A stretch of 64,000 bases of DNA from a phage: the sequence record PZ445524.1, one strand, 5' to 3'. Position numbers and translations under genes: made by a program. Of this stretch, positions 1,511 through 57,518 are shown in pieces. The stretch's first letter is position 1. Each line of letters begins with the position of its first letter. The notes below the pieces were generated by a model that had not been told where the DNA came from, made no database searches, and saw only the letters and a list, made by a program, of their open reading frames with translations.

Positions 1511-1746
1511 AGTACGCCATACACCCTTTGTGCTTCAACTAATCCATCAAAATCCAATTTAAGATGCGATATTTGATCGCCATCGCCTGGATTCACAATT
1601 ACTAATACTGAACGAGGAGTTTCGGTAATAACACGAACCGATGTTTCAGGAAATCGTTCAGAAACCTTATTTACCAATTCCTGTGCAAATAGCTTAACTT
1701 TTTCTTGGAATTCTTTAACAGTAATCGGTTTTTCACTTAGCAGCAT
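1507..1746 (-). CDS. hypothetical protein (79 aa)
   Basis: ATG at 1744-1746 preceded by GAGGAAA SD; early promoter upstream. Confidence 0.55.
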   Translation of the reverse strand: MLLSEKPITVKEFQEKVKLFAQELVNKVSERFPETSVRVITETPRSVLVIVNPGDGDQISHLKLDFDGLVEAQRVYGVL

Positions 1747-1770
1747 TTTGTTTTCCTCATTTGTTTGGTA

Positions 1771-1805
1771 GAGCTATAATATCACAACTCTACCGTAAAG
1801 TAAAC
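1771..1805 (-). promoter_or_regulatory. early promoter (GTTTAC -35, TATTAT -10)
   Basis: - strand GTTTAC, ~18-nt spacer, TATTAT, then SD and ATG of ORF 1507..1746. Confidence 0.55.
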
Positions 1806-1807
1806 TA

Positions 1808-2083
1808 TTAAATTGCTTTGAATTCTGCTGTCTGCGATTCAAAACGAATATCGCCTTTGATGACTAGCTCAGCATCAAGACCGAATACAACAATGATATG
1901 CGCGGAACCTGGATACAGCGTAATGGCAACAGAATCCACCTGGTCTGGAAGCAAAGTGTTCAATACATGAGTCACTTGAGCATGGATTCGAAGCTCAGCT
2001 GCGTTATCAAGTTTTTCAAACATATTATTAGCGATAATTTGGCTAAACACTACTTCTACGATTTTAGAGTAAGTCGGAAACAT
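1808..2083 (-). CDS. hypothetical protein (91 aa)
   Basis: ATG with GAGGT SD. Confidence 0.5.
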   Translation of the reverse strand: MFPTYSKIVEVVFSQIIANNMFEKLDNAAELRIHAQVTHVLNTLLPDQVDSVAITLYPGSAHIIVVFGLDAELVIKGDIRFESQTAEFKAI

Positions 2084-2147
2084 ATTTACCTCACATAATT
2101 TTCTTCAAGCCAATTAATAATATCCCAAGTTTTATGATGCAAAGCCA

Positions 2148-3276
<1,129 letters not shown>

Positions 3277-3280
<4 letters not shown>

Positions 3281-3576
3281 TTACATTTATCCTCTTTTAA
3301 CTCTTGACGATAATAACATATCATAGTTTTCTGGTCATGTACATATCGTTTTACATCATTAAGCCAAATACGAAATTCCTGAGAATCTTCAAATGGCATA
3401 CCGACCCAAGCTTTACCATCGATAACTTTAACTTGCCAAGATAGTTTAGCTTCATCATATGACTTTATTTGTACAGGCCAATTAGGATGAACTGTTTCTT
3501 TCTTTACTTCTAGAGGCTTTGTCGAACAACCAACTAGAAGACCAATAGATAATATTACTGCTGATAGTTTAATCAT
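3277..3576 (-). CDS. putative lipoprotein (99 aa)
   Basis: N-terminal signal peptide with lipobox LLVGC. Confidence 0.55.
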
Positions 3577-3926
3577 TTAGAAAGGTCCTGGATGTCTTCT
3601 GCGAACTTGTTGAAGGAGTTGTTGATTTGTTTTTCAACCAATCCTGGCTTATGAGCCACCACATCCGCCTTCTTTGCATCTTTGCGCAGTTTTTCATTTT
3701 CACGCTCAATAGCAGCAATTGCCTCACGATTTTTAGTATTCATCGCATCAATATAATTATACTGAATTCGCAAATTATTTAATGCTAAGGCGTTTTCATT
3801 GGCCGTTTTTGTAATTTCTACAACAGACGTTTCTAATCTTTCAATTTTATTTTTTAAAATTAAAGAAGTTCCGCCTAATGCAATTACAATTAATAGCAAA
3901 CCTGCTGTCGTATTACTTAATTGCAT
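3573..3926 (-). CDS. membrane-anchored coiled-coil protein (117 aa)
   Basis: N-terminal hydrophobic segment then charged heptad-like sequence. Confidence 0.55.
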   Translation of the reverse strand: MQLSNTTAGLLLIVIALGGTSLILKNKIERLETSVVEITKTANENALALNNLRIQYNYIDAMNTKNREAIAAIERENEKLRKDAKKADVVAHKPGLVEKQINNSFNKFAEDIQDLSK

Positions 3927-4420
3927 AAAGTTTTAATAACCTCTATAATATCGTCTTGAGAAAGACCGTTAATTAAAATATGATGTTCAGCTGGAGATTT
4001 AGAAATTTTAAAGCATGCCGCAACATCTTCTGCCATATCTGATGCACTACGATTTGGATTACTAATTCCAAGACGATGCTTTCCAGTCAAAGGATTGACG
4101 ATGATATAGCATTTGCAGCTATTGATATGAACATTAGGTTGAGTCTGATTAATGAATACTTCGCACTCATACTTAGCGAGTTGATTTTCTAAAAAGACTT
4201 TCATCTCTTCAACCGCATCAGGAAGCATATCACGGGCTTGCTCAAGACGACGATTTCGATATTCTTTAATGGTCGTTTTCCGCTTGACTTGCTTAGCTAA
4301 ATCTTTCTTAAGATCAGTGATATATCCAACTCGACGATTTCCTTTGAATACAGAAATCCCATCTGTAGTATCACCGTATGCTTCAACGACCATTTCAGTA
4401 GTAATAAGTTGTAAATCCAT
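3917..4420 (-). CDS. alc: putative Alc (host transcription unfolding/termination protein)
   Basis: 167-168 aa ORF at the position between pseT and rnlA expected from T4 gene order; assignment is positional. Confidence 0.6.
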   Translation of the reverse strand: MDLQLITTEMVVEAYGDTTDGISVFKGNRRVGYITDLKKDLAKQVKRKTTIKEYRNRRLEQARDMLPDAVEEMKVFLENQLAKYECEVFINQTQPNVHINSCKCYIIVNPLTGKHRLGISNPNRSASDMAEDVAACFKISKSPAEHHILINGLSQDDIIEVIKTLCN

Positions 4421-4484
4421 CATAAAGTCCTCATGTTATGTCAGTAAGACTACTATAACACAACACGAGGGACTTGTAAACAGC

Positions 4485-6072
<1,588 letters not shown>

Positions 6073-42086: not shown

Positions 42087-42618
42087 TACTGGCTCATCCA
42101 TTCTTTACGAAGGTCAGCATTATCTCCCATGAGCATTTCAAAAAGCTCTTTCCAGTTCTCAGGAAGTTTAACAACATCATATACTGGATTTTGAATCATT
42201 TCACGATATTCAGATTTTTCCAAAGAGCCAAGTCCTTTAATATAACGGATGCTATGTTTAGGTAAAGCATCTTTAGCACTCTCATATTCAGCGACTGTAT
42301 AAAACCATTCTTGTTTTTTACCGACCTGAGCGATGATTACAGGAGTTTTGACAAAGCGAATTCTTCCTTGTTCAAACAGTTCTGGCCAATTACTAAAAAA
42401 TCCGAGCAAAGAAGGATAAATAGAACCTAATCCAATAATCTCTTAATTATGAGGTATTTCTATAGATAGCCCGAAGGCTATCCATCGTGATCTGCGTCTG
42501 TCATAATAGCGACATTCGCATAGTTCATTGAAGAGGATTTAATAGAACGACGAACATTGTTCTGCAATTTATATTTTTTCATATCAACGCTAGAAGAATC
42601 AATTTTTACAAATTTCAT
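42086..42618 (-). CDS. 60: DNA topoisomerase II small subunit gp60, with 50-nt translational bypass (codons 1-46 at 42481..42618, codons 47-160 at 42086..42430)
   Basis: ATG 42616-42618 (MKFVKIDSS); codon 46 GGA then UAG; landing GGA 42431-42433; resumes UUA GGU (LGSIYPS...). Confidence 0.9.
42431..42483 (-). other. gene 60 translational bypass element (take-off GGA, UAG stop, stem-loop, landing GGA)
   Basis: - strand reads GGA UAGCCUUCGGGCUAUC...UUAUU GGA; UUCG tetraloop hairpin directly 3' of the take-off codon. Confidence 0.85.
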
Positions 42619-43417
42619 TATACACCTCATAGAACTTTTCATCAGGAATCCAACCGCGTTTAAATTCATTAAATGCTCGGCCGAATAATTTTGAATTCAC
42701 AGTTATATTATTAACTGATTTCCATTTAGCAACTCCCGTTCGTTTATAATGATCGGGGTCATATTTCGTGACGTACCATTCATATAAATTTGGTATTAAT
42801 TTTACAGCCTCTGGATTTGTCGCTGATTTATTATACCATGGTTTCGCTTTTTCAAGTTCAGCTGCTTTTGCAGTAGCAGCAACAGTATTTCCAATACCAA
42901 CTAATTTTTCAGCTTTAATGCGTGGATCATTAACATGAAGACGAAAAACTTCGCCTTTTTCATTTTTAAAGCATGTCATGCCTTTAATTCCAGGAAGCTT
43001 AACACCTTTATTAACACCGCACCATTCCTTTGGGTTAAATGATCCTTTAATTAATAAGGCGCATTTACCCGATTTAATACTTCTCATTAAAACTTTATCT
43101 TTCATAAAGTTTTTTGACCATTCAGATACTGCTCTTTGATGGTAAATTCTAGCAATTTCATATAATTTACTAGAACGTAAATATTTTTCAGTGTTTAACA
43201 TTCTATTCATCGCATATGCCATTTCACGATTACGATGAATTTTATATAGTAGAAAATGTGCTAAAAAGTGTTCACGAAAAGTCAGTTTCACCAAATTTTC
43301 TTTATCATCAGAACCTCCCATTGATCTTGGAAGGATATGATGAATTTCACCCTTAAATTTAGAAACGCGGGTTTTACCCCGCACTATTAAGTCATTATAG
43401 ATTTTTTCGTAATTCAC
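42599..43417 (-). CDS. mobA: HNH homing-endonuclease-like protein (Mob family) between genes 39 and 60
   Basis: 272 aa; HNH motif EIHHILPRSMGGSDDKENLVKLTFREH; no ATG near N-terminus (GTG start), overlaps gene 39 end and gene 60 start. Confidence 0.65.
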   Translation of the reverse strand: MNYEKIYNDLIVRGKTRVSKFKGEIHHILPRSMGGSDDKENLVKLTFREHFLAHFLLYKIHRNREMAYAMNRMLNTEKYLRSSKLYEIARIYHQRAVSEWSKNFMKDKVLMRSIKSGKCALLIKGSFNPKEWCGVNKGVKLPGIKGMTCFKNEKGEVFRLHVNDPRIKAEKLVGIGNTVAATAKAAELEKAKPWYNKSATNPEAVKLIPNLYEWYVTKYDPDHYKRTGVAKWKSVNNITVNSKLFGRAFNEFKRGWIPDEKFYEVYNEICKN

Positions 43418-44945
43418 CTACTGTTATCCATTTACCATTAATCTGTACTTCATCATTTTCATTTACGATAATTGTATCGCCATTTAGTTCGAAAGTAAAC
43501 CACTCGCCATCTTCTTTTTCTTCAAACGCCTTTTCACCAAGAACTAGACCAGTGATTGCGCAAATATCAAATAGTTCTTTGTTTTTAAGCATATCGGCAT
43601 ATGACATACCCCAGCTATTAAGAACTTTACCGCGCAATGGATAACCACCATGAAGTTCTTTATCGCGAACATCAATAAGATATCCGATAGCAGAATCACC
43701 CTCAGTCAAGAAAAGAGTAGTGTCAGCATCTTTACCGCAAAGATTCGCTTTGATATGTTTATGAACCTTAGCTTTAGAAGCCTTTTTAGCTGCTTTAGTT
43801 TCTGCTGCTTTTTCTGCCGCCAATTTACGAGCCAAAGCAGCTTCAATAATCGGCATCAGAATTGCTTCATTATTTAGAATAGCGCGTGAAATCTTTTTAG
43901 CATCAAGCTGAATATGACTACGAATTTCACCAAATGGAGAAGTCAAACGCTCTTTAGTTTGAGAATCAAATCGCATGTTTTTCATATCACGAACAAACAT
44001 AACGATAGTCAAACATTCTTTAACACGTGCTTTAGTTACATCAATTTTGAACTTACGTTTGATTTGTGGAATAAGGTCTTCACAAATATCATCCATAACA
44101 CAGTCAATGTGATGGCCACCATTCTTAGTGTGGATGTTATTCACATAAGTTAATTGACGAAATCCATCCGGTGAACGACCAACCGCAATAGAACAATTTT
44201 CTTGTTCTTGAACAATAGCATGTTCATCATACTGCCGTGCATATTTCTTAAAATTGCCCTGAACCTTTTTACCATTAAAGGTAAATTGGATATCAGGATA
44301 AACAACAGCAAGTGTCTGGAGACGATCTAGTGTAATGTCAAGATAAACTTGGGACAGCTCATTAGTTTCAAATGACATAAAATCAGGAATGAAAGTAACA
44401 CGAGTTCCTTTCCATTTTCCAGGAATATCTTCCCATGATTTATTTTCCATGCCATTTGAACAACGAACTACAATATTATTTTGACCATCGCCAGTTTCAC
44501 CAACAAACATCACAGAAAAAATGTTTGTCAAACTAGAACCAACACCATTCATACCGCCAGTGACGCGTTCTTTATCATCACCAAAGTTACCACCTGCTTT
44601 TGGAATAGTCCATGCAGCAACAGGACCAGGAATTTCTTCACCGGTAGGTGTTTTAACCATCGCTTGTGGAATACCACGACCGTTATCTTCAACTGTTACT
44701 TGATTGTTTTTAATAGTAACATTAATTTTATTTGCGAATTTAAACTTAGTACGAATACCTTCATCTACTGAGTTATCGATAATTTCATCAATAAGCTTAA
44801 CAAGACCAGGTACATACTGAACACTTTCCCATTTACCAAACAGAAAGCGCTCATGCATTTCATTAGCAGAAGAGCCAATATACATGCCGCTACGCTTTTT
44901 GATATGTTCAATATCGCTCAGAATTTTAATTTCATTCTTAATCAT
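43395..44945 (-). CDS. 39: DNA topoisomerase II large subunit gp39 (GyrB-like ATPase)
   Basis: 516 aa from ATG 44943-44945 with GAGGA SD; ATPase motifs GLVKLIDEIIDNSVDE and GRGIP. Confidence 0.92.
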   Translation of the reverse strand: MIKNEIKILSDIEHIKKRSGMYIGSSANEMHERFLFGKWESVQYVPGLVKLIDEIIDNSVDEGIRTKFKFANKINVTIKNNQVTVEDNGRGIPQAMVKTPTGEEIPGPVAAWTIPKAGGNFGDDKERVTGGMNGVGSSLTNIFSVMFVGETGDGQNNIVVRCSNGMENKSWEDIPGKWKGTRVTFIPDFMSFETNELSQVYLDITLDRLQTLAVVYPDIQFTFNGKKVQGNFKKYARQYDEHAIVQEQENCSIAVGRSPDGFRQLTYVNNIHTKNGGHHIDCVMDDICEDLIPQIKRKFKIDVTKARVKECLTIVMFVRDMKNMRFDSQTKERLTSPFGEIRSHIQLDAKKISRAILNNEAILMPIIEAALARKLAAEKAAETKAAKKASKAKVHKHIKANLCGKDADTTLFLTEGDSAIGYLIDVRDKELHGGYPLRGKVLNSWGMSYADMLKNKELFDICAITGLVLGEKAFEEKEDGEWFTFELNGDTIIVNENDEVQINGKWITVGELRKNL

Positions 44946-45014
44946 CACTTATCCTCGTTTGGTTTCGGGAATATTATACTCCAATAATCATAAAGCTAAA
45001 GGCCCGAAGGCCTT

Positions 45015-55630: not shown

Positions 55631-55867
55631 TTAACCACCTATTTCTGTTGGCGTAAACATTGCAGCATTCTTAGTTTTCCAGTCAGCTGCATCAGAAACT
55701 ACAGTAGAATATGCCGCCTTTTCAGAAGGAAAGGTCTGATAATGAGAATCTGCAATACGATGCTCGTTAGAATAGATTTCAAATGGAACAGAAACTTCCA
55801 TACCTTTAACTTCTTTACCTTCACCTGCTGGATGAGTAAAGGTCTTTATATTAACGAAACCACCCAT
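55631..55867 (-). CDS. soc: small outer capsid protein Soc
   Basis: 78 aa; AGGAG SD; late promoter upstream and terminator downstream. Confidence 0.8.
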   Translation of the reverse strand: MGGFVNIKTFTHPAGEGKEVKGMEVSVPFEIYSNEHRIADSHYQTFPSEKAAYSTVVSDAADWKTKNAAMFTPTEIGG

Positions 55868-55898: not shown

Positions 55899-55906
55899 TA
55901 TTTATA
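55899..55906 (-). promoter_or_regulatory. late promoter TATAAATA for soc
   Basis: Reverse complement TATAAATA about 30 nt upstream of the soc ATG. Confidence 0.7.
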
Positions 55907-56738
55907 AACCATTTTCAAATCTCTTTATCATGTTTATATAATTTTCGTCAGGATAACCTAGGCTAACTGCTAGCTTTCTAAAATTGACATATTTAGGTTT
56001 GTTGTTATTAATCCATAATTCTCTAAGCTCTTTTTCATAATTCCATTTAAGTTGATTTCTGCGTGCAATTTTGCTTAAAGTTTTTCCTTTAGCTTTTAAA
56101 GCTTTTTCAGATGACTGTTTTAATTTTTGAATATTTAAAACTTCTTCTATAGATAAATTATTTTCCTTTGAATATCTTATGCAAAAATCTTTTACTATGG
56201 CTATTAGGCAATTTTTGTGAGTACCTAAAATTTCTGGATTATTTTCTTCAACTAAAATTCCCCAATACCTTCGATAGCGAGGCATATCCCTTGAAATCCA
56301 GTCATTATACCAAAAATCAAAGTTGGAATACATGAAAGATTTTCTTTTACGAAGAGTATCTTGGTTTATCCATTGCTCACGTTTATCAGCCCATAACTTA
56401 ATAGTAAAGTCTTTCTCTAAGTCAGAAAGCTTCTTAAATTGTGAGCTATTTACTGAGGTCATTCTCTGGAATGCATTCAGCAATCCAAATCTTCCAGTTG
56501 AACATAAGAGATAGTGAACATATATGTGTTGATATATTGGGAGATATACTCTATTCCAAGGATATATTTTAAAATCACTATACTCAGGAAATGCACATTT
56601 AGGAAGTATATGATGGGCTTCTGTTTTAGATTTAATGTGAGTGTTTAACTTATACTTATCTATAATTTTTAAATACTCATCTAAAAGTTCCCATTGCGGG
56701 AACTTTTCTTTAAGAGCAGATTTGAAATTAATATCCAT
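55902..56738 (-). CDS. HNH homing-endonuclease-like protein (Mob-type) adjacent to gene 56
   Basis: 278 aa from ATG 56736-56738; motif EAHHILPKCAFPEY; basic C-terminal region; start overlaps gene 56 3' end by 11 nt. Confidence 0.65.
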   Translation of the reverse strand: MDINFKSALKEKFPQWELLDEYLKIIDKYKLNTHIKSKTEAHHILPKCAFPEYSDFKIYPWNRVYLPIYQHIYVHYLLCSTGRFGLLNAFQRMTSVNSSQFKKLSDLEKDFTIKLWADKREQWINQDTLRKRKSFMYSNFDFWYNDWISRDMPRYRRYWGILVEENNPEILGTHKNCLIAIVKDFCIRYSKENNLSIEEVLNIQKLKQSSEKALKAKGKTLSKIARRNQLKWNYEKELRELWINNNKPKYVNFRKLAVSLGYPDENYINMIKRFENGL

Positions 56739-57246
56739 TATCTTGACGTTCAAAATTATGTTTGTTCTTCAAATAATAAAGTTTAAAGATTTCTTCAGCC
56801 GACATTCCAAGAGCAATAAATTTATTCATGAAAAAGTGAAATTGGTCAATCAGTTCAAATTTAATTTCAAGCTGATCTTCGGGAGATAAATCTTGAATTT
56901 TCTTGGATTGCATTTCAGAATAACGTTTCTTCCAAGGTTTCCATACAGCAGAAGCTTCTTTTTCACCATTACTCATACCACCAAGAGAAGTATATAGCTC
57001 GCGAGTTTCGTCTGCGATATAATCGTCTTGGTTTCGCAGCCAAGCAAGAACTTCTCCTGCAGTTTCAAGTGAATCGGGATGACGATTTGTTTCTGGTTTA
57101 TCATTAGCCAAACGAATCTGTAAATGCCGCTGCATATCAAGCATAACCTGCAATGGGTCTTTTTCATCACCGAGAATATCCCAGTATTCATTTTGAGCTT
57201 TATCAACACCTTCGATCAAATGAGCACATTCATTAAAGTGAGCCAT
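56728..57246 (-). CDS. 56: dCTPase/dUTPase gp56 (MazG-like)
   Basis: 172 aa from MAHFNECAHL; middle-promoter-like element upstream. Confidence 0.85.
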   Translation of the reverse strand: MAHFNECAHLIEGVDKAQNEYWDILGDEKDPLQVMLDMQRHLQIRLANDKPETNRHPDSLETAGEVLAWLRNQDDYIADETRELYTSLGGMSNGEKEASAVWKPWKKRYSEMQSKKIQDLSPEDQLEIKFELIDQFHFFMNKFIALGMSAEEIFKLYYLKNKHNFERQDNGY

Positions 57247-57317: not shown

Positions 57318-57518
57318 ATGGTACAAAAATTAATGGCACTTGTTGATGCCATAAAAGGTAATAAGAAACGTATAGCTTTTACTATTTCTGCTATGGTAGG
57401 AATTTTACTCTGGAACTTTATTTTATCACCTGTTGCAATTGCACATGGTATTAATATTCCAGTAGTTACTCTTGATACATTCGTAGATTTAGCATTTGCT
57501 TTAGTTGGGTTAATTTAA
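57318..57518 (+). CDS. small putative membrane protein (66 aa) on the + strand between genes 56 and 61
   Basis: SD AAGGAGGA then ATG at 57318; two hydrophobic segments; stop overlaps gene 61 stop convergently (TTAA). Confidence 0.45.
   Translation: MVQKLMALVDAIKGNKKRIAFTISAMVGILLWNFILSPVAIAHGINIPVVTLDTFVDLAFALVGLI

Follow-up and report, generated by a model that had tools for sequence, protein, structure and literature searches.

A predicted Mob-type HNH homing endonuclease gene in the segF slot between gene 56 and soc of T4-like phages

In bacteriophage T4, cleavage of phage T2 gene 56 by the GIY-YIG endonuclease SegF (formerly gene 69) was reportedly shown by experiment, and SegF is said to mediate exclusion of the T2 gene 56 allele. 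The Mob endonucleases of T4 are also known, as are promoterless, terminator-damped expression, the nicking of neighbouring genes, marker exclusion, and the fact that endonucleases of several families can target one gene (PMC2988022, PMC2790892); domain shuffling among phage homing endonucleases has been described as well. According to the account that a review gives of Sandegren et al. (2005), SegH and Hef replace mobC and mobE, with endonucleases of different families found at the same intergenic positions in T-even phages and directed at the same target genes (PMC2988022). Here we analyze a 64,000-nucleotide (nt) stretch of phage DNA (sequence record PZ445524.1; hereafter the window), in which a 278-amino-acid (aa) open reading frame (ORF) lies between gene 56, encoding dCTPase, and soc, encoding the small outer capsid protein. 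We call it the HNH ORF, and its predicted product is a Mob-type homing endonuclease. The window is a segment of a T4-like (Tequatrovirus) genome; an identical record was absent from the phage collection that we searched, where the best 24-kb matches were 94–96% identical.

Reading along the minus strand, gene 56 is followed by the HNH ORF and then by soc. An earlier note on this DNA had proposed a 278-aa ORF with the motif TEAHHILPKCAFPEY between soc and gene 56, overlapping the last 11 nt of gene 56 and containing the soc late promoter in its 3′ end, at a flank where T4 carries segF, and each of these points held up. The motif forms residues 39–53. The start codon is the ATG at 56738–56736, within the GAT AAT GGA TAT TAA that ends gene 56, which makes the overlap exactly 11 nt, and the TAA stop (55904..55902) is the TAA within the soc late-promoter box TATAAATA, which spans the last two bases of the Leu278 codon, the stop, and three more bases. 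In T4, segF lies between soc and gene 56 and likewise overlaps gene 56 by 11 nt.

The HNH ORF has many of the hallmarks of the T4 Mob family (MobA–MobE), including an N-terminal HNH domain with the pattern E-HHILP...N...H...H joined to a distinct C-terminal DNA-binding region, an intergenic position between conserved genes with apparently no promoter of its own and a start that overlaps the upstream gene, and a sporadic distribution with conservation above that of its flanks. As in mobE, a terminator-like hairpin lies early in the ORF. It differs from the T4 Mob genes in its soc/56 locus and presumably in its target, and it lacks both NUMOD3 repeats and a Pfam HNH match; moreover, whereas the nicking of T2 nrdB by MobE has been mapped, the HNH ORF is known from its sequence and a structural model. 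The window itself contains a mobA homologue, whose motif EIHHILPRS had been picked out earlier as similar to that of the HNH ORF, and BLASTP bore out this likeness by aligning both HNH motifs, with 18 of 43 residues identical (E = 0.001 for the pair). This homologue (42599–43417, minus strand) encodes 272 aa from a GTG start, and its first 23 nt are shared with the end of the topoisomerase subunit gene (44948..43395) that lies upstream.

Broader comparisons pointed to the same family. The HNH ORF matched PHROG 655 ('homing endonuclease') at 1.1e-32 and, over residues 17–107, PHROG 12434 ('HNH endonuclease') at 5.3e-10, and it is annotated as 'HNH endonuclease' or 'homing endonuclease' in the RefSeq records of PhiZZ23, fPS-2, ACG-C40, KM16, and others. 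Among 1.84 billion cluster representatives we found 726 relatives at E ≤ 1e-3; a narrower homologue search, even with a profile, returned only 3–6 proteins. The matches of the relatives fell into two separable blocks (residues ~4–130 and ~200–277, with most on the N-terminal part), which indicated that the protein is modular. H42, H43, P46, N62, H71, and H75 were invariant across all 80 aligned relatives, and the spacing HH...N-x8-H-x3-H is the classical H-N-H layout, with the canonical spacing taken from the HNH residues of colicin E9 (H102/H103/N118/H127/H131). Pfam found NUMOD3 in 20 of these 80 relatives and an I-HmuI NUMOD-like domain in five, as well as three matches to PF01844, two to HNH_5, and one to HNH_4, with the members behind these HNH matches not necessarily distinct. 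In BFVD, a collection of predicted viral structures, 24 entries matched at E ≤ 1e-3, and all of the named ones were homing, HNH, or Mob endonucleases; labels among the tblastn and BFVD matches included MobD-like, mobC, and mobE. The nearest full-length paralogues (~25–30% identical) reside at another locus, between genes 46 and 47 of T6, CM8, and others. Together, these comparisons confirmed the HNH ORF as a predicted Mob-type free-standing HNH homing endonuclease gene. The earlier note had allowed that the protein might have no HNH fold or might be a conserved non-nuclease present in all relatives. Instead, we found an HNH signature with a modelled beta-beta-alpha core, in a gene that is absent from most relatives.

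An AlphaFold2 (AF2) model built on the 80-sequence alignment had a mean predicted local distance difference test (pLDDT) score of 82.5, compared with 39 for single-sequence AF2, and comprised two confident domains parted by a low-confidence linker (Table 1). Its beta-beta-alpha core, predicted with a pLDDT of 94–98, consists of a strand (residues 39–43) that ends in HH, a second strand (63–67) just past N62, and a helix (68–79) that carries H71 and H75. As modelled, H43 is likely the general base, H42, H71, and H75 the metal ligands, and N62 the structural Asn. The pLDDT fell below 50 for residues 151–168 of the linker, which is the region where relatives hold NUMOD3 repeats or other modules. 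The C-terminal module, modelled as three helices, resembles helix-turn-helix (HTH) domains and is also found independently on other endonucleases. This arrangement of an HNH nuclease, a linker, and modular DNA-binding elements ending in an HTH is like that of I-HmuI, and some relatives, as noted above, match the Pfam I-HmuI_NUMOD-like family. I-HmuI, however, is intron-encoded whereas the HNH ORF is free-standing, and our sequence and structure searches yielded no match of the HNH ORF protein to I-HmuI. The ~50-residue C-terminal module has no Pfam family and occurs in one or two copies per protein, on either HNH or GIY-YIG heads (its bearers being P0006, P0012, P0013, P0015, P0017, P0019, P0022, P0026, and P0084); it appears to represent a DNA-binding module that accompanies nucleases and has yet to be named.

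Table 1. Features of the soc–gene 56 interval, with positions in the window.
Feature	Position	Strand	Basis
Free-standing HNH homing endonuclease ORF, predicted (278 aa + stop)	55902..56738	-	ORF listing, translation, PHROG 655, annotation of relatives
N-terminal nuclease domain, predicted (residues 1–130)	56349..56738	-	pLDDT 87–98 (residues 1–120), 84 (121–130)
HNH beta-beta-alpha-metal core, predicted (residues 39–79), TEAHHILPKC...WNRVYLPIYQHIYVHYLLC	56502..56624	-	Invariant residues and AF2 model
Helical linker/middle region (residues 131–229), lineage-specific	56052..56348	-	Low to medium AF2 confidence
C-terminal HTH-like DNA-binding module, predicted (residues 230–278), W..EL..LW...PKY..FRK.A..GYPD..Y..M.K.F	55905..56051	-	
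Terminator-like hairpin within the 5′-terminal part of the ORF (AAAAGUUCCC-GCAAU-GGGAACUUUU)	56683..56707	-	RNA fold, conservation
Variant 42-nt 3′ tail of gene 56 (KNKHNFERQDNGY, then stop), holding the HNH ORF start codon	56728..56769	-	Alignment
Gene 56 (dCTPase), conserved flank, presumed target gene	56728..57246	-	Translation and annotation of relatives
soc late promoter box TATAAATA, right cassette boundary	55899..55906	-	Supplies the HNH ORF stop
soc (small outer capsid protein), downstream flank	55631..55867	-	ORF and annotation of relatives

Comparison of the soc–56 interval across T-even genomes, as had been proposed earlier, revealed four arrangements at this slot: the HNH ORF, segF, a soc.1/soc.2-type insert, and an empty site. 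DNA of the HNH cassette was present in 31 of the ~706 phage records with a soc–56 region, one copy in each, and in Tequatrovirus, Moonvirus KM16, Gaprivervirus DK-13, and Klebsiella phages it lay in this one slot, overlapping gene 56 by 11 nt each time. The slot was empty in ECP52 and PhiZZ30, was filled by segF in T4 and 49 other records, and held the soc.1/soc.2-type insert in RB14 and the T2-like SV76 (316 records matching at least part of this insert). Similarity among the HNH, segF, RB14-type, and empty configurations resumed exactly at the soc box TATAAATA. We aligned 18 genomes, including 14 carriers of the HNH ORF (the window and 13 others). The ATAAATA of the box was invariant in all 18, with the first T of the box replaced by A in KM16 (AATAAATA).

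In this alignment the cassette was far more uniform than the DNA around it. The gene 56 body of the window was only 66–77% identical to that of most carriers, whereas the cassette past the gene 56 tail was 97–99% identical in 11 of the 13 (92% in KM16 and 85% in DK-13), and in a Klebsiella carrier a 97.6%-identical cassette adjoined a soc of only 62% identity. Among the 11 Tequatrovirus carriers, nucleotide diversity dropped from 0.10–0.25 in gene 56 to 0.00–0.03 from ~56790 through most of the ORF, and was ~0.06 in its last ~60 nt and 0.02–0.07 in soc. One and the same cassette followed gene 56 alleles of three families, which differ from each other by 22–30% (70–78% identical). The ORF was intact in all 14 carriers, at 277–278 aa, and dN/dS between the window and the 11 carriers of equal length was 0.02–0.16. 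Because of its 726 relatives, its integrity in 14 carriers, and these dN/dS values, the HNH ORF is not a chance ORF. Such conservation and distribution are the standard signatures expected of a recently spreading and presumably functional homing endonuclease gene.

The decay phase of a homing cycle was also represented: in vB_EcoM_005 (NC_055783) an 86%-identical copy of the HNH gene is frameshifted and lies amid duplicated gene 56 fragments ahead of soc. The same region (~1700–3750 of locus L047) holds a fragment of an endonuclease C-terminal module, a partial and diverged copy of gene 56, an HNH N-terminal fragment, and a second gene 56 without its first 42 codons, a tangle resembling what homing events, repeated or aberrant, would leave behind. 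Other loci showed further traces of endonucleases around gene 56. In fPS-2, a second homing endonuclease gene (216 aa, at 4249–4899 on the minus strand of its locus; NUMOD3 at 7e-7 and a weak HNH match) lies directly upstream of gene 56, and PYPS2T and G2540-3 also have a second endonuclease gene there, such that gene 56 is bracketed by two endonuclease genes in these three phages. In another locus (L030) an endonuclease C-terminal module lies just upstream of gene 56, and in DK-13 an extra 77-aa ORF (670–903 on the minus strand of its locus) separates the HNH gene from soc.

The last 42 nt of gene 56, which supply the start codon of the HNH ORF, set carriers apart from the empty-type genomes of the alignment. 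Ten of the 13 other carriers, among them 8 of the 10 Tequatrovirus carriers, and T4 had this tail exactly as in the window; it differed by 1 nt in CJY920 and in SmallBear, by 4 nt in KM16, and by 6 nt in DK-13 (86–98% identical). In ECP52, PhiZZ30, and RB14 its identity was only 62–64%. Fixed differences between Tequatrovirus carriers and empty-type genomes comprised 14 substitutions at 56764..56729, all in the last 36 nt of gene 56, and two more just past the stop. At the protein level, gp56 ended in ..NAENF.RQ..GY in 39 of 43 diverse T4-like loci, and the four exceptions were two endonuclease carriers and two empty sites, both IMG/VR contigs (L017 and L021), with a carrier-like tail (NQHNFERQDNGY). 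A conserved protein end of this type is the kind of sequence that homing enzymes favour. The tail also provides the AUG and raises the A/U content of the stretch ahead of it.

The expression of the cassette would be tied to that of gene 56. As its sequence features and the analogy with T4 segF and mobE suggest, the cassette would have no promoter of its own and would be read from gene 56 transcripts, which the hairpin 31–55 nt into the ORF would attenuate. The RNA from 56760..56660 folded at −23.8 kcal/mol (z = −3.85), and none of 200 shuffled sequences folded as well. The hairpin was identical in 13 of the 14 carriers, including the 85%-identical copy of DK-13, and is annotated as a terminator in fPS-2; a simple terminator scan of the window did not call it because its U-run sits within the stem. 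Internal terminators have been reported at the same relative place in segF and mobE (PMC2988022), and further precedent for mobE expression is available (PMC2790892). We found no Shine–Dalgarno sequence ahead of the HNH ATG, and initiation is therefore probably by ribosomes terminating on gene 56, as a review proposes for the 11-bp overlap of segF (PMC2988022). Ribosomes finishing gene 56 would re-initiate at the AUG in its last codons, and little protein would be made. At the other edge of the cassette, the soc late promoter presumably keeps soc expression independent of the insert. Two further observations concern the RNA of this region. In ACG-C40 the hairpin loop GCAAT is changed to its exact reverse complement ATTGC with the stem kept (Q15L and W16R), which looks like a hairpin-mediated loop inversion. 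In addition, the predicted fold of the minus-strand RNA has, at 56736–56760, a weak A/U-rich stem that pairs the HNH AUG with tail-specific bases (CAUAAUUUUGAACGUCAAGAUAAUG); this stem could mask the start codon, but its weakness allows no argument to be built on it.

We propose that the HNH ORF is a selfish mobile cassette of ~820 bp, located between the stop that ends gene 56 and the late promoter of soc. During co-infection with a cassette-free relative, the enzyme would nick or cut the relative's genome, most likely at the 56/soc junction or the 3′ end of gene 56, or very close by, and recombinational repair would then copy the cassette with a short flank into the broken genome. The insertion, and perhaps the variant 42-nt tail as well, would protect the carrier's genome from the enzyme. 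As for its origin, either this cassette or a segF-type one probably replaced the other at a site that had been modified before. We consider this explanation probable as a whole, that is, a promoterless selfish Mob-type HNH cassette with the expression described above, homing near the gene 56/soc junction, and a segF-type replacement.

For the position of the cut by itself we put the chances of a junction-proximal site at roughly even. Several lines of evidence favour it. First, the conserved tract on the gene 56 side extended ~50–75 nt at most in at least three independent backgrounds, and a tract this short suggests a break close to the insertion point. Second, the gene 56 bodies of PhiZZ23 and the window were 98.1% and 93.5% identical, respectively, to that of the empty-site ECP52, and the fixed differences between carriers and empty-type genomes were confined to the gene 56 tail and the two positions just past the stop. 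If empty-site phages of this type are the targets, self would be discriminated from non-self via the tail, the insertion, or both, and recognition would therefore lie at the 3′ end of gene 56 or close to it. The conserved end of gp56 described above also fits a target there.

Several points weigh against our explanation, in its family assignment as well as in its cut site. Scans of the HNH ORF against Pfam and NCBIfam gave no meaningful match, so that the Pfam check for HNH_3 or NUMOD domains proposed earlier was negative, and searching the PDB by sequence, with either the protein alone or the 80-sequence profile, yielded nothing or chance centrin matches. Free-standing T4 endonucleases usually cut hundreds of base pairs from their own gene (PMC2988022). 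The fixed differences, determined over gene 56, the soc promoter, and soc, rest on a comparison with just three empty-type genomes. HMD-9 carries the full KNKHNFERQDNGY tail with no endonuclease gene and with the last ~65 nt of a soc.1-type insert, and CE1 and PD112 carry a chimeric tail, half of it carrier-type (KNKHNFERQDRGY), also with no endonuclease gene. Finally, the tail might just as well be an ordinary polymorphism of gene 56, a trace left behind when a cassette was lost, or an adaptation that provides the AUG along with a leader rich in A/U.

The library misses, we think, reflect poor coverage of T4 endonucleases and not the protein itself. T4 SegF had no match in the Pfam scan either, and the MobA of the window scored 20.1 bits against a Pfam HNH cut-off of 21.4; we accordingly rejected Pfam silence as an argument against an HNH domain, and the family assignment rests on the other evidence described above. 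A strict tie between the tail and the presence of the endonuclease was rejected on account of the full tail in HMD-9 and the half tail in CE1 and PD112, and because of these same genomes we downgraded the idea of an immunity tail to one of two readings. Carrier-like tails that lack the endonuclease may have been left by the loss of a cassette or by crossing over within the tail.

The strongest competitor to a cut near the junction, which we regard as doubtful but well worth weighing, is a working homing endonuclease with a distant site, either hundreds of base pairs into gene 56 or in soc, for which the tail would be a hitch-hiker or an adaptation of the start. Such a site would follow the general rule just cited (PMC2988022), and MobE, for example, nicks nrdB 122–126 nt into the gene (PMC2790892). 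The tails of HMD-9 and CE1, found without the endonuclease gene, and the effect of the tail on the AUG and its A/U-rich leader also fit this alternative. However, no fixed difference separated carriers from empty-type genomes in soc or over the 480 nt of the gene 56 body, and a distant site would therefore also sit in the carriers' own genomes; moreover, gene 56-side tracts of no more than ~50–75 nt fit a break near the insertion.

The relation between the HNH ORF and segF bears on how the cassette arrived. Over the last 42 nt of gene 56, T4 and the window had no differences, including ATGGATATTAA; similarity was lost right past the gene 56 stop and regained exactly at TATAAATA, the TAA of which is also the SegF stop. 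The HNH ORF thus resembles SegF in its slot, its 11-nt overlap, its ATG, its 42-nt tail, its stop within the soc box, and its 5′ hairpin, and both proteins start with M-D-I. It is unlike SegF in being an HNH rather than a GIY-YIG enzyme and in its length (278 versus 224 aa), and the two cassettes have no DNA similarity inside, with 36.9% identity between the interiors in alignment. The GIY-YIG motif (KFYRTYIV...WYAGKH...YPGSG in SegF) is absent from the N terminus of the HNH ORF. The C-terminal regions, by contrast, match the same DNA-binding module profile. BLASTP against T4 SegF gave a 26-residue C-terminal match at best (E = 0.07, marginal), and the support for a shared module came from a targeted profile, built from relatives of the HNH ORF, which matched SegF residues 168–201 at 11.9 bits (E = 1.2e-5 in a single comparison). 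The module is also borne, often twice, by SegF-like GIY-YIG proteins (P0006, P0012, P0013, P0015, P0022, and P0026), at 40–46% identity to the HNH ORF. The HNH ORF therefore shares its locus and C-terminal module with SegF but is not a member of the Seg family. A review figure shows SegF as a GIY-YIG/HNH-type enzyme, and its legend calls segF a 'hybrid' of the two endonuclease types (PMC2988022).

These observations bear on the proposal in the earlier note that an endonuclease of a different family at the same hot spot had invaded independently. The different nuclease family, the hot spot, and the optional nature of the insert were all borne out, but the shared tail, ATG, stop, hairpin, and C-terminal module favour replacement over independent invasion. 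That the HNH gene and segF each entered an empty soc–56 site separately, as a preferred landing place, seems unlikely to us, even though the nuclease domains are unrelated, the cassettes have so little in common inside, the interval with its four configurations is plainly a hot spot, and different endonuclease classes are stated to target the same genes independently (PMC2988022). Both cassettes share a tail that differs from the empty alleles at 14 positions, which makes fully independent invasion hard to sustain, and in both the ORF begins at the ATG of that tail, has its stop in the TATAAATA box, and contains an early hairpin. Two insertions that yielded the same tail together with ORF-precise boundaries would be improbable. 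In CJY920, moreover, the HNH gene follows a T4-type gene 56 (93.7% identical to that of T4), as expected from swaps via shared flanks. One cassette probably replaced the other at an already modified site, and the two probably behave as alleles that are exchangeable via their common flanks, which CJY920 fits. There are hints that segF came first, in that the segF copies resident in the slot diverge more deeply (65% aa identity) than the HNH copies (86–89%). In a more distant genome (L039), the start of a 65%-identical segF homologue likewise overlaps gene 56 by 11 nt, although the tail there differs in sequence.

The most speculative extension of replacement, and one that we think improbable, is that HNH and SegF are interchangeable nuclease heads on one chassis (tail and start, hairpin, HTH module, and stop), both reading the 3′ end of gene 56. 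If true, this would be a natural in-situ swap of nuclease domains, in which one homing endonuclease displaces another from an occupied and otherwise immune site.

Least probable of all, and in our judgement very unlikely, is that the HNH ORF encodes an inactive relic or a domesticated protein that hitch-hikes, regulates genes via its DNA-binding module, or interferes with competitors: although T4 carries defunct endonuclease genes such as I-TevIII (PMC2790892) and decay does occur, as the frameshifted copy in vB_EcoM_005 illustrates, all of the catalytic residues are kept, the intact ORFs and low dN/dS values across the carriers argue against decay, and near-identical copies across genera imply a recent horizontal spread beyond that of a relic. 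Purifying selection is not enough to tell homing apart from a domesticated role.

Some features of the DNA around gene 56 lie outside the cassette. The 56–61 interval is a second variable region adjoining gene 56; in the window it contains a single ORF (57318–57518, plus strand; 66 aa, RB32ORF030w-like), and it has no dam methyltransferase gene, unlike the same interval in T4, ACG-C40, PhiZZ30, and SH_GT. Within gene 56 of the window, a mosaic patch of ~37 nt (57160–57196, minus strand, encoding AQNEYWDILGDEKD) is of the T4/fPS-2 allele type, and the remainder of the gene body is of the ECP52/RB14 type.

Our search of a literature library found no paper on this HNH gene or on its relation to segF. 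The HNH ORF is a further, uncharacterised Mob-type endonuclease of T-even phages, as its predicted family implies, and it does not overturn the current understanding of these enzymes. The replacement of mobC and mobE by SegH and Hef, in which different endonuclease families likewise use one intergenic slot, concerns nrd loci; here the contested slot is that between soc and gene 56, where two nuclease families use one start codon, one tail, and one stop. The locus would thus serve as a natural system in which to study how one homing endonuclease replaces another, how short co-conversion tracts can be, and whether HNH and GIY-YIG enzymes with related modules recognise one and the same target. 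It also leads to the prediction that crosses between therapeutic or laboratory T4-like phages would show local marker exclusion of gene 56 and soc alleles.

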